Shown: piece by piece, positions 37,605 to 39,589 of the stretch
How the letters are laid out: every line of letters begins with the position of its first letter
Numbering within the stretch: the stretch's first letter is position 1
Made by a program: the position numbers and the translations under genes
DNA from: Actinomycetota bacterium
GTDB lineage: Bacteria > Actinomycetota > Acidimicrobiia > Acidimicrobiales > AC-14
Assembly (NCBI GenBank): GCA_005888325.1
Contig: VAWU01000030.1
Coordinates: 80,349-133,890 of the forward strand
Length of the DNA: 53,542 nucleotides
Reading direction: 5' to 3'
Notes under the pieces: generated by a model
The model's input: the letters and a program-made list of their open reading frames with translations, nothing else
Told to the model about the DNA's origin: nothing
Databases searched by the model: none

Positions 37605-38312
37605 ATGAGAGCGATCATCCTGGCTGCGGGGGTCGGACGGCGTCTCGGGGACAGCGTCACGGAGCGCCCGAAGTGCCTCCTCGAGCTCGAGGGCCGGACA
37701 CTCCTCGATCGGATGCTCGATGCGCTGGGGGCCGTGGGCGTACGCGACATCGTTGTCGTCATCGGCTACCTGGGGGAGCAGATCCGTGAAGCGGTGGCCG
37801 GCCGACAGGGTGTCCGCACGATCTTCAACCCGGAGTACCGAAAGGGCGCGGTCGTGTCGCTCTGGCGCGCGCGGGACTACTTCGACGACGACCTGCTCAT
37901 CATGGACGCCGACGTCCTCTTCCCGACGGAACTGCTCCGGCGTCTCGTCGACTCGCGCGACGAGAACTGCTTTCTGATGGACGCGTCCGGCGCAAACGAT
38001 GGTGAGGCGCAGATGCTGATGGCGCGTGAAGGACGCACCGTGGACATCACGCGTGGTCTCCGCGGCGAGTATGACGCGTGCGGCGAATCGATCGGCTTCC
38101 TGAAGCTCAACCAGGAGACCGCTCAGGTGCTCCTCCGGCTCATGGAAGGAGCAATGCGAGCGGGCCGAGACACCATCGAGCACGAGGAGCTCTACCCCGA
38201 CCTCATGCGCGAGTGCCGGATCGGCTACGTGACAACCGACGGCGTGCCGTGGACCGAGATCGACTTTCCCGAAGACGTGGAACGGGCGCGGCGAATGCTG
38301 AGCGCGCGATGA
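37605..38312 (+). CDS. nucleotidyltransferase, an IPCT / LicC-like alcohol-phosphate cytidylyltransferase
   Basis: An RBS (aagagg) precedes the ATG. The G-loop reads MRAIILAAGVGRRLG. The C-terminal WTEIDFPEDVERARRML resembles the end of an IPCT domain. Confidence 0.65.
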   Translation: MRAIILAAGVGRRLGDSVTERPKCLLELEGRTLLDRMLDALGAVGVRDIVVVIGYLGEQIREAVAGRQGVRTIFNPEYRKGAVVSLWRARDYFDDDLLIMDADVLFPTELLRRLVDSRDENCFLMDASGANDGEAQMLMAREGRTVDITRGLRGEYDACGESIGFLKLNQETAQVLLRLMEGAMRAGRDTIEHEELYPDLMRECRIGYVTTDGVPWTEIDFPEDVERARRMLSAR

Positions 38313-39589
38313 TCCATGCCGTCGTCTTCGATACGGACGCTCCGTTCCGCGCTGGGGATGCGCCCGCATCCGATGTTTCCGCAGAGGACCGCCTCGCCGG
38401 ACTGACCTTGCTGCGGCGGATGATCCTCATGGCCCGAGAAGCGGGCGCCGCAAGTGCGACCGTCGTCGCGCACGACCCAGAGTCGGCGCGCCGCTGGCGC
38501 TCCTCGGAGGTGGCGCTACCGATCCCGGTGACCGTCGTCGAGCCGAACGAGCTTCTCCTCCTCCCGGACGAATGCGACGGAGTGCTCGTCCTGTCGGCGC
38601 AGGTTTTGCCGCAGGCTTCGCTCCTGGACCGCCTCGTCGATGAATTCCGGGCGGGGCGCTCGGTCGCGGCCGTCGCGAGCGGAGCGGCGTCGGGCGGACC
38701 AGCAGTCGTGCACGCCGATGATCTCCGCGAACGGTCGGCCGCCGGCGAGTCTCCGACTCACGCGGTGGAGCAGCTCGTGCGCGTCGCCGGCCCGACGGTC
38801 GTGGATCCGCGTTCATACCGCCACTTGATCGACCAGGAGGCGGTCGCGGCAGCCGATCGCGACATGTACAGAGGCATGACGTCCGCCTCGGACGGGTTCG
38901 TCGACCGGGTGTTCAGCCGGCACGTCTCCCGGTGGTTCACCCGCCGGATCGTCAACCTGCCCATCACACCGAACCAGATCACGTGGTTCCATCTCGCGCT
39001 CGGGCTGGGCGCGGCGGGTCTCTTCTGGCGGGGCGGGTACGTGAGCGGCCTGTTCGGTGCCGTTCTGCTGCAGCTGTCGGTGGCCCTCGACTGCTCGGAC
39101 GGGGAGGTGGCTCGGCTCAAGTTCCAGACGAGCAGGTTCGGGAGTCAGCTCGACGTGGCGGCCGACAACATCATCAATGTGGCCGTCTTCGCGGCCATCG
39201 CCAAAGCCGCGGCCGGCCGCCTCGGCTCGCGTCTCGCGCTGACGCTGGGAGCGCTCTCGGTCATCGGTGTGGCCATGTGCGTGCTCGTCGTCCTGCTGAT
39301 GGTGAGGGTGCAGGGCCGTCTCCGCCCCGGCGAGGCGTCCTCACTCGCGGTGACGAACCGCCTCTCGTTCAATGACCCGGTGGCGCCCGCCACCACGGCG
39401 ACGATGGTGGACACGGTCATCAACGAGGTGACGTCGAGGGACTTCACCGTCCTCATCGTCGCATTGGCGATCATCAATCATCTGGAGTGGTTCGCCTGGC
39501 TGGCGGGGATCGGCTCGCACGTCTTCTGGGTGAGCTTCGGCGCCGTCCAACTCTCCATGCTCCGATCCGCAAGCGCGAAACTCTCGTAG
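38309..39589 (+). CDS. CDP-alcohol phosphatidyltransferase with an N-terminal degenerate nucleotidyltransferase-like domain (DIPPS-like architecture)
   Basis: ATGA overlap with the upstream gene. The signature DCSDGEVARLKFQTSRFGSQLDVAADNI is a perfect D-x2-DG-x2-AR-x8-G-x3-D-x3-D. There are 6 TM helices. The N-terminal ~200 aa (AVVFDTD...LLRRMILMAREAG) lacks the LAAGxGxRL loop. Confidence 0.7.
   Translation: MIHAVVFDTDAPFRAGDAPASDVSAEDRLAGLTLLRRMILMAREAGAASATVVAHDPESARRWRSSEVALPIPVTVVEPNELLLLPDECDGVLVLSAQVLPQASLLDRLVDEFRAGRSVAAVASGAASGGPAVVHADDLRERSAAGESPTHAVEQLVRVAGPTVVDPRSYRHLIDQEAVAAADRDMYRGMTSASDGFVDRVFSRHVSRWFTRRIVNLPITPNQITWFHLALGLGAAGLFWRGGYVSGLFGAVLLQLSVALDCSDGEVARLKFQTSRFGSQLDVAADNIINVAVFAAIAKAAAGRLGSRLALTLGALSVIGVAMCVLVVLLMVRVQGRLRPGEASSLAVTNRLSFNDPVAPATTATMVDTVINEVTSRDFTVLIVALAIINHLEWFAWLAGIGSHVFWVSFGAVQLSMLRSASAKLS

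Follow-up and report, generated by a model that had tools for sequence, protein, structure and literature searches.

A coupled cytidylyltransferase and CDP-alcohol phosphotransferase gene pair followed by an ABC-2 exporter, most likely a stripped-down version of a predicted phosphonate head-group pathway

The stretch of DNA analysed (53.5 kb, here called the window) contains two overlapping genes, referred to as A and B, and a pair of exporter genes. Gene A (37605-38312, + strand) starts with MRAIILAAGVGRRLG, is preceded by the Shine-Dalgarno-like stretch GGGGAAAGAGG and encodes a LicC/PntC-type cytidylyltransferase of 235 amino acids. Gene B (38309-39589, + strand, stop codon 39587-39589) encodes a protein of 426 amino acids and its ATG at 38309 falls within the stop of A, an arrangement of translational coupling. 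This ATGA overlap (38309-38312, + strand, gcgcgATGAtcc), which had been claimed in the original prediction, was confirmed by reading the sequence, and the same 4-bp overlap was found in the relatives L005, L006 and L096. Downstream of B, a DrrA-like ABC transporter ATPase is encoded (39667-40632, + strand; PF00005, E = 1.4e-32), which scored 202 bits against TIGR01188, below the cut-off of that model. Its gene is overlapped by 14 bp by the gene encoding an ABC-2 type permease (40619-41386, + strand; PF01061, E = 6e-18; PF12698, E = 4e-15), and the two make up an ABC-2 exporter pair. The gap of 77 bp between B and the ATPase gene holds no terminator-like site, and in the closest relative (L096, 70% identity) the N-terminus of the same ATPase comes after B; as far as can be judged from the sequence, the ATPase gene is probably co-transcribed with A and B. 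A functional link of the exporter to A and B, as suggested before, is favoured by this gap and by the order kept in L096, but an ABC-2 permease is present in 2 of 52 related loci and absent from the other 50; the link is plausible but weak. Third-position GC is high in A and in both ABC genes and an identical protein is found in at least four independent assemblies, which, together with the conserved homologs, rules out chance ORFs. Scans of the window for Rfam families and tRNAs gave no match, and no sigma-70-like promoter was detected near the cassette, a result that is uninformative for an organism with 70% GC. When metagenomes were scanned with B alone, all matches were fragments of the same contig, and a tblastn search of a plasmid collection with B gave no match.

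The HMM searches that had been proposed as a check revealed PF12804 (NTP_transf_3) in A (E = 3e-20) and PF01066 in B. The active-site residues of A are intact, comprising the G9-x-G-x-R13 loop, K23, D101-x-D103, E161 and D220. Among PDB sequences, the top match was 6pd1 (PntC-AEPT of Treponema, 2.9e-12, full length), followed by LicC (7.5e-12) and then IPCT (4.6e-8), in line with the LicC/IPCT-like nucleotidyltransferase proposed before; IspD/TarI-type enzymes were resembled weakly. PntC is a phosphonyl-tailoring cytidylyltransferase with specificity for 2-aminoethylphosphonate (AEP) (Tde1415/Ari1348, PDB 6pd1; PMC6697681), for which Rice et al. use proximity to ppm as operational criterion (PMC6697681). 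A resembles PntC in its LicC-like PF12804 fold and in having an intact active site but is distant from it in sequence, and its gene lies away from ppm, no PepM being encoded in the 53.5-kb window; orthologs of A with 64-69% identity are located near ppm. In Tde-PntC, Glu104 and Glu196 contact the substrate amine (PMC6697681). A substrate call from these two positions was split and was dropped: Glu104 is replaced by a LicC-like Asp (D101) in A, whereas the equivalent of Glu196 is kept in PntC-like form (E194). Sequence alone does not separate specificity for AEP from that for phosphocholine, phosphoethanolamine or inositol-phosphate, and the substrate of A is a predicted one. Further, A is 64-69% identical to the nucleotidyltransferases (NTases) that adjoin B homologs in AEP clusters and keeps all of the 41 positions that are conserved at 90% or more when 64 NTase genes adjoining B homologs are compared.

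The N-terminal ~190 amino acids of B (38309-38878, + strand) gave no Pfam match. The AlphaFold model of B (pLDDT 91.2, pTM 0.86) has pLDDT values above 90 across this cytosolic domain, which is folded as a nucleotidyltransferase, and Foldseek matched it to IspD, GlmU, UGPase and RmlA (E 1e-5 to 3e-4). In a profile-profile comparison (hhalign), it was aligned with the family of A with 91.6% probability (E = 8e-7). Since this alignment begins only past the GxGxR/K23 segment of A and since S96-A-Q98 of B stands opposite D101-x-D103, the catalytic loop and the metal ligands are absent from B; further, not one of the first 30 positions of B is invariant in an alignment of 42 sequences. By these comparisons, the domain keeps the nucleotidyltransferase fold but is catalytically dead, the GxGxR loop, the lysine and the metal-binding DxD having been lost, which agrees with the original prediction of a nucleotidyltransferase-like N-terminus lacking the catalytic loop. 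In analogy to AF2299, this pseudo-enzyme domain probably serves as a scaffold or a surface for docking and not as a catalyst.

The remaining part of B (38888-39589, + strand) is modelled as a juxtamembrane helix and six transmembrane helices that carry a CDP-alcohol phosphotransferase domain, detected by PF01066 at amino acids 220-331 (E = 1.5e-9; 38.9 bits versus a gathering cut-off of 22). Helices in the model comprise residues 197-214, 221-241, 244-270, 276-300, 307-338, 379-388 and 392-425. The signature D261xxDGxxARx8Gx3Dx3D286 (39089-39166, + strand) is as perfect as had been claimed: all eight residues (D261, D264, G265, A268, R269, G278, D282 and D286) are present and invariant in the 42 sequences. 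Signature, Pfam score above threshold and six-helix fold with juxtamembrane helix place B among the class I CDP-AP enzymes. F274, located in the signature spacer, distinguishes B of the window and its nearest relative from the rest of the clade, which has T or R, and the residues R377-D378, where the fifth transmembrane helix starts, do not vary among the 42 aligned sequences. A phmmer search matched B to AF2299 (3.8e-15), IPCT/DIPPS of A. fulgidus (5e-10), PIPS (1.7e-5) and PssA (~1), and Foldseek matched it to AF2299, DIPPS and PIPS, with whole-chain matches to IPCT-DIPPS and AF2299; on the sequence evidence, B is far more similar to soluble-donor enzymes than to users of CDP-DAG. B can be grouped with the AF2299-type CDP-AP enzymes, AF2299 being closest by sequence and by structure (Foldseek E 6e-11, TM-score 0.78 normalised to the target). 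AF2299 (A. fulgidus, PDB 4o6m/4o6n) and B share a non-catalytic cytidylyltransferase-like N-domain, the juxtamembrane helix and the six transmembrane helices, but the N-domain of B is full-size (~190 aa) and the sequence similarity extends no further than transmembrane helix 3. AF2299, which has no known physiological role, binds CDP-glycerol, and both AF2299 and DIPPS process non-lipid substrates (PMC4634129). Because AF2299 and IPCT/DIPPS each have an N-terminal cytidylyltransferase-like domain (PMC4634129), the objection that the nearest relatives could be phosphatidylglycerophosphate or phosphatidylinositol-phosphate synthases with unrelated N-termini does not apply.

IPCT/DIPPS (A. fulgidus AF0263, PDB 4mnd) has in common with B the order of a nucleotidyltransferase fold followed by a CDP-alcohol transferase as well as a soluble CDP-alcohol donor. 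The likeness in domain order, claimed before, is borne out by AF2299 and A. fulgidus IPCT/DIPPS being the nearest solved relatives of B in both sequence and fold, and the alignment with the latter, proposed as a check, gave the 5e-10 match by sequence and made 4mnd the top Foldseek match of B (9e-13). The original prediction had gone further and considered, besides an unusual phospholipid or wall phosphodiester, a DIP-type compatible solute; in this reading, A and B would be a split IPCT and DIPPS that make CDP-inositol and, from it, di-myo-inositol-phosphate-phosphate. Indeed, both A and B score best in NCBIfam with NF041135, the equivalog model for IPCT/DIPPS of Thermococcales, and some database entries for relatives bear this name, but the scores of 85.4 (A) and 67.1 bits (B) are far below the curated equivalog cut-off of 580 bits. 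The similarity of B to DIPPS ends at about residue 298, short of the acceptor-side helices, and the N-domain, which is catalytic in IPCT/DIPPS, is dead in B, where the active NTase is a separate gene. An inositol-1-phosphate synthase was found neither in Pfam scans of most window ORFs nor in the Pfam-annotated neighbourhoods of the window's own contigs and of nine relatives; Pfam scans of most other window ORFs did not find lipid head-group genes either. Moreover, relatives labelled IPCT/DIPPS are themselves located in AEP clusters, for example in Nitrospira lenta, and, as a weak argument, the matching records are mostly metagenome contigs whose names and Ga identifiers suggest soil and not a hyperthermophile. 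The low equivalog scores and the AEP clusters around the orthologs of A and B make an inositol solute very unlikely, but the general part of the prediction, that a CDP-activated polar head group is transferred to an alcohol, stands.

The gene neighbourhoods of B homologs were compared in 52 non-redundant related loci with at least 5 kb of flank on both sides. An A-like gene was present in 47 and an LPG_synthase_TM/HpnL-like membrane gene in 50 of them; Ppd (phosphonopyruvate decarboxylase), AEPT (AEP transaminase) or PepM (PEP mutase) was encoded within 10 kb of the B homolog in 35, and about a third had no AEP genes within this distance. Relatives of B with 50-58% identity directly follow genes for a PepM-NTase fusion, Ppd (two genes), AEPT and NTase. 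The locus L097, whose B is 54% identical, has a complete core of Ppm-NTase fusion, Ppd, AEPT, TauD-type oxygenase, NTase, CDP-OH transferase and HpnL-like protein, and this corresponds to the group 1 phosphonolipid cluster named 'Burkholderiales_CDP-OH' (PMC8942020) and to the scheme for Nostoc/Burkholderia (PMC5987646). Group 1 clusters are predicted ones, for which PMC8942020 cites Yu et al. 2013; their core comprises Ppm(-PntC), Ppd, AEPT, a 2-oxoglutarate oxygenase, PntC, a CDP-OH transferase and an HpnL-like protein, and their product was never characterised (PMC8942020). In a neighbour-joining tree, the window and P0002 were nested in a clade whose members have AEP clusters. The family of B is large: no fewer than 1,891 cluster representatives (50% identity) were matched at E ≤ 1e-30. 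Database names for its members are 'phosphatidylglycerophosphate synthase' or 'IPCT/DIPPS', and the gene neighbourhoods contradict both.

The window itself is atypical. A tblastn search (E ≤ 1) of the 53.5 kb with queries taken from the related loci revealed no PepM, Ppd, AEPT, Fe-ADH, TauD or HpnL-like protein and no APH, Inositol_P or SQHop-like match; the only match was that of the NTase domain of the PepM fusion to gene A. Hence, of the seven core genes of group 1, the window has two, for the stand-alone PntC-like NTP transferase (A) and for the CDP-OH transferase (B), whereas Ppm, Ppd, AEPT, oxygenase and HpnL-like protein are missing and the ABC-2 pair follows B instead. That A and B are the remnant of a decaying phosphonate cluster with no current function would account for the loss of all usual neighbours, but it is extremely unlikely given that A and B keep all invariant residues, that start/stop coupling is intact, that A and the ABC genes are rich in GC at third positions, that several assemblies independent of each other contain the identical protein and that the arrangement is conserved at 70% identity.

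The lack of C-P synthesis genes in the window also speaks for a pathway without any phosphonate, in which A would make a CDP-alcohol, B would transfer it in a Kennedy/Lic-like manner to a lipid or an envelope polymer and the ABC-2 pair would export the product. Candidate phospho-alcohols are phosphoethanolamine, phosphocholine, glycerol- or ribitol-phosphate. Envelope polymers are a common cargo of ABC-2 exporters, and in the subclade of the window and P0002 ABC-2 has taken the place of the HpnL-like gene and the residue at F274 is altered. Such a phosphate-ester pathway is further consistent with the near-equal matches of A to LicC and PntC next to its weak resemblance to IspD/TarI-type enzymes, and with the binding of CDP-glycerol by AF2299, the best solved match of B (PMC4634129). 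Against it stand the orthology of A (64-69%) and B (50-58%) to genes of AEP clusters, in whose clade they are nested, the retention of all 41 family-conserved residues in A, and the lack of a choline/ethanolamine kinase and of other lic or tag genes nearby; we regard it as somewhat unlikely.

Since the relatives of B are found in AEP clusters and not in inositol-solute pathways, the phosphonate head-group reading is most likely, and the cassette would most likely be a stripped-down, exporter-linked version of the predicted phosphonate head-group pathway. We consider it slightly better than an even chance that A and B catalyse the two steps of a Kennedy/Lic-type head-group pathway that belongs to phosphonate tailoring. 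In the first step, A, an ortholog of the stand-alone PntC-like enzyme, would condense CTP with a small phosphonate, of which AEP or a hydroxylated or close analog is the likeliest, to a CMP-conjugate. In the second step, the AF2299/DIPPS-like B would move the phosphonyl head group onto a hydroxyl of an acceptor, presumably a membrane lipid ('phosphonolipid'), with release of CMP. Because Ppm, Ppd, AEPT and the HpnL/LPG_synthase_TM-like protein are absent from the locus, the phosphonate would have to be made by genes in other parts of the genome or be taken up from the surroundings. Where related loci have the HpnL-like gene, the window has the co-oriented ABC-2 exporter, which may transport the product outward. 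The logic is that of the Lic (LicC/LicD) and Kennedy (CEPT1/EPT1) pathways, in which a small polar phosphoryl or phosphonyl compound is activated by cytidylylation and then transferred, but LicD belongs to an unrelated transferase family, and CEPT1-type enzymes have three to four transmembrane helices in addition to the six seen in B (PMC4634129).

The lipid acceptor is uncertain because B has six helices: according to Clarke et al., CDP-alcohol transferases of this kind use soluble acceptors and enzymes with lipid acceptors have extra helices (PMC4634129). With the same donor chemistry, B could instead use a soluble, probably phosphorylated alcohol, and the ABC-2 pair would export a diester solute. 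The acceptor would be of the type used by DIPPS, PIPS and PgsA and the product a phosphono- or phospho-diester. The six-helix architecture, the non-lipid substrates of AF2299 and DIPPS (PMC4634129) and the invariant R377-D378 pair point in this direction, as do genes for an Inositol_P-family phosphatase and an APH-family kinase in the clusters of the closest relatives; no phosphatase or kinase partner is, however, encoded in the window. The LPG_synthase_TM/HpnL-like gene, adjacent in 50 of the 52 loci and occasionally fused (PF01066+PF03706 proteins P0269-P0272), points to a membrane-bound product, and a soluble product is quite unlikely. Linked with the possibility of a soluble or phosphorylated acceptor is a self-contained operon for scavenging, activation, attachment and export, which we consider unlikely: the organism would make no C-P bonds but take up environmental AEP or a related phospho-alcohol, A would cytidylylate it, B would couple it to an acceptor and the ABC-2 exporter would replace the HpnL-like partner.

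In sum, the cassette varies a predicted pathway and does not represent a novel type of system. About half of the microbial pathways for phosphonate biosynthesis are believed to serve the decoration of bacterial envelopes with phosphonates (PMC8942020). We found no published characterisation of the transferase step that follows CMP-AEP formation and no characterised member of the transferase family of B in the literature. The minimal four-gene version, with activator, transferase and exporter pair, would be convenient for heterologous reconstitution and raises the question whether some bacteria attach phosphonates they do not make themselves. Given the six helices of B and the non-lipid nature of the solved enzymes closest to it, a family assumed to make 'phosphonolipids' might use a soluble or phosphorylated acceptor; if this is true, this large family would yield a new class of phosphonodiester.

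Gene A (37605-38312, plus strand) codes for a LicC/PntC-like protein of 235 aa that begins MRAIILAAGVGRRLG and contains an NTP_transf_3 domain (Pfam, E = 3e-20); a purine-rich ribosome-binding stretch lies upstream of its start. The TGA stop of A and the ATG of gene B (38309-39589, plus strand) share an ATGA at 38309-38312, and B, a protein of 426 aa, carries a CDP-OH_P_transf domain at residues 220-331 (Pfam, E = 1.5e-9, above the gathering score). Sequence and Pfam domains thus agree with the two-gene cassette of the original prediction, and the perfect CDP-alcohol signature read in B was complete: D261, D264, G265, A268, R269, G278, D282 and D286 are all present, and none of them varies across 42 aligned family members. 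An identical B protein is encoded by at least four metagenome contigs that were assembled independently. Genes for an ABC ATPase (39667-40632) and an ABC-2 permease (40619-41386), assigned by Pfam, follow on the same strand; no terminator-like site was found in the 77 bp between B and the ATPase gene. The 880-bp gap upstream of gene A (36726-37604) holds a single ORF of 57 aa, on the minus strand in the metagenome annotation, and yielded neither an Rfam match nor a promoter-like site.

The N-terminus of B had been described as a degenerate nucleotidyltransferase domain without catalytic loop. An AlphaFold2 model of B built on the family alignment was confident (pLDDT 91.2, pTM 0.86) and its whole-chain Foldseek matches in the PDB included the IPCT-DIPPS of A. 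fulgidus (4mnd, E = 9e-13), the CDP-alcohol transferase AF2299 (4o6n, E = 6e-11, TM-score 0.78 normalised to the target) and AF2299-domain/PIP-synthase chimeras; further matches, to the N-terminal domain only, were many soluble nucleotidyltransferases (IspD, GlmU, UGPase, RmlA). When B(1-192) was set against 64 A-type sequences in a profile-profile alignment, the probability was 91.6% (E = 8e-7) over B25-114 and A24-119. Since this alignment starts past the GxGxR loop and Lys23 of A and places S96-A-Q98 of B opposite the metal-binding D101-x-D103, the description was correct and the domain is a dead nucleotidyltransferase fold. Clarke et al. described a "cytidylyltransferase-like" domain of like kind in AF2299 and AfDIPPS (PMC4634129). 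[quoted passage not shown] Structurally, B belongs to the AF2299-type CDP-alcohol transferases.

Among solved structures, A matched best, and over its full length, PntC-AEPT of Treponema denticola (6pd1, 2.9e-12), followed by LicC (7.5e-12) and IPCT (4.6e-8); PntC is the cytidylyltransferase specific for 2-aminoethylphosphonate (AEP) in phosphonate tailoring (PMC6697681). The gene neighbourhoods of relatives decide between these options. Upstream of B relatives of 50-58% identity we found genes for a PEP mutase (PepM)-nucleotidyltransferase fusion, a two-gene phosphonopyruvate decarboxylase (Ppd), a class-V aminotransferase (AEP transaminase, AEPT) and an A-like protein, and the gene next after B was usually an HpnL-like LPG_synthase_TM gene. 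One such locus (L097, B 54% identical) reads PepM-NTase, PpdN, PpdC, AEPT, TauD, NTase, B and HpnL-like gene, the core described for "Burkholderiales_CDP-OH" group 1 phosphonolipid clusters (PMC8942020) and also drawn for Nostoc and Burkholderia (PMC5987646). A tblastn census took in 80 loci from genomes and further ones from metagenomes. Of the non-redundant loci, 52 had 5 kb or more of sequence on each side, and in these, flanks of up to 10 kb were scored: Ppd, AEPT or PepM occurred in 35/52, an A-like gene in 47/52, an LPG_synthase_TM gene in 50/52 and an ABC-2 permease in 2/52. A shares 64-69% identity with the NTases adjoining B in AEP clusters and retains 41/41 of their positions of at least 90% conservation, and a neighbour-joining tree (no bootstrap) places window B, together with P0002, the relative closest to it (70% identity), within the clade formed by B proteins from AEP clusters. 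Public names in the family include "phosphatidylglycerophosphate synthase" and "IPCT / DIPP synthase" (e.g. P0058, P0064, P0065, P0066, P0079); the Nitrospira lenta copy is called "bifunctional IPC transferase and DIPP synthase" in UniRef, yet it lies downstream of Ppd, AEPT and NTase genes, and the name is probably a propagated misannotation. In the clusters of the closest relatives (L093 549-10352, L094 1-12203, L095 577-8618, L005 1-10278) extra genes lie between AEPT and the A-like gene, coding for an Fe-ADH (HEP-forming type), a kinase of the APH family, a phosphatase of the Inositol_P family and an SQHop_cyclase_C-like protein of 320 aa. This set, apparently undescribed, suggests that the phosphonate head group is more complex or that the acceptor goes through a kinase/phosphatase cycle.

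The window itself, with a GC content of ~69%, differs from the seven-gene definition of the group 1 cluster. PepM, Ppd, AEPT, TauD, Fe-ADH, APH, Inositol_P, SQHop-like and HpnL-like genes were absent from it (tblastn, E ≤ 1), and the ABC-2 exporter pair holds the HpnL-like slot after B. On its 2.4-kb contig, the closest relative has the same A-B overlap, and the 134 bp that follow B code for "...LELDGVSKRYGDVHALV", where the same ATPase begins, so the A-B-ABC order is a trait of this subclade. Window B deviates at 13/123 positions conserved in the AEP-linked clade, mostly by conservative changes. Residue 274 (nt 39128-39130), within the eight-residue signature spacer, is Thr in the window, Arg in P0002 and Phe in 18/20 AEP-cluster-linked relatives; this change could be a sign that specificity is altered in the ABC-linked subclade.

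Most other window ORFs have unrelated functions by Pfam (glycosidases, oxidoreductases, methyltransferases, acyl-CoA dehydrogenase, Ada/AlkA, phosphoesterase, patatin). A patatin-like phospholipase gene with an N-terminal cyclic-nucleotide-binding domain (41353-43044, minus strand; ORF as listed to 43335) converges on the permease gene, the 3' end of which it overlaps by ~34 bp; that a gene for a lipid-acting enzyme lies next to a putative head-group operon may be a coincidence. Just downstream of the patatin gene, 43372-47970 (plus strand) encodes a very large predicted secreted protein (~1,520 aa) with faint PD40/Tricorn-type beta-propeller repeats and many copies of a "VFVRDRQSGTTERVSVS" unit. 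About 15 kb upstream of the cassette lies a Phosphoesterase-family gene of the phospholipase C/acid phosphatase type (22005-23603, minus strand; PF04185, E = 7e-72). Two tandem GFO_IDH_MocA oxidoreductase genes, a family that includes inositol dehydrogenases, and a carboxymuconolactone-decarboxylase-family gene follow one another at 30851-33609 (plus strand); nothing links these genes to the cassette. Ada (Zn-binding, AraC HTH) and the adjoining AlkA_N (26410-27780, minus strand) make up an adaptive-response pair for DNA alkylation repair that has no relation to the cassette.

From orthology and context, A would convert CTP and AEP or a close analog to a CMP-phosphonate, with the phosphonate supplied either by genes in another part of the genome or by the environment; alternatively, its substrate may be a phospho-alcohol. 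With a phosphonate substrate, the phosphonyl group would then pass to an acceptor hydroxyl at the CDP-alcohol transferase site of B, whose fold and motif are present, with release of CMP. The similarity of B to solved structures, limited to the nucleotide/donor side from the juxtamembrane helix to transmembrane helix 3, is much greater to AF2299 (3.8e-15) and DIPPS (5e-10) than to CDP-DAG users (PIP synthase 1.7e-5, PS synthase ~1), and this favours a soluble donor activated by a nucleotide (cf. PMC4634129). The literature on the phosphonate head-group pathway assumes a lipid acceptor. The near-universal HpnL/MprF-flippase-like neighbour and the fusions of B relatives fit a membrane product; proteins of 715-802 aa (P0269-P0272) join PF01066 and PF03706 (CDP-OH_P_transf and LPG_synthase_TM) and are Rosetta-stone evidence for the transferase and the flippase-like protein acting together. 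Despite this, the B model has only six helices, an architecture that Clarke et al. tied to soluble acceptors, lipid-acceptor enzymes having extra helices (PMC4634129), which makes a lipid acceptor uncertain. Translocation could have been taken over by the ABC-2 pair.

In its mode of working, the A-B cassette resembles the PntC branch of phosphonate tailoring and the Kennedy/Lic logic, and it is a variant of an already predicted kind of pathway. The B family comprises at least 1,891 representatives of 50%-identity clusters (E ≤ 1e-30), with no biochemical characterisation in the literature searched, and the A-B locus offers a compact handle on this unstudied transferase step.
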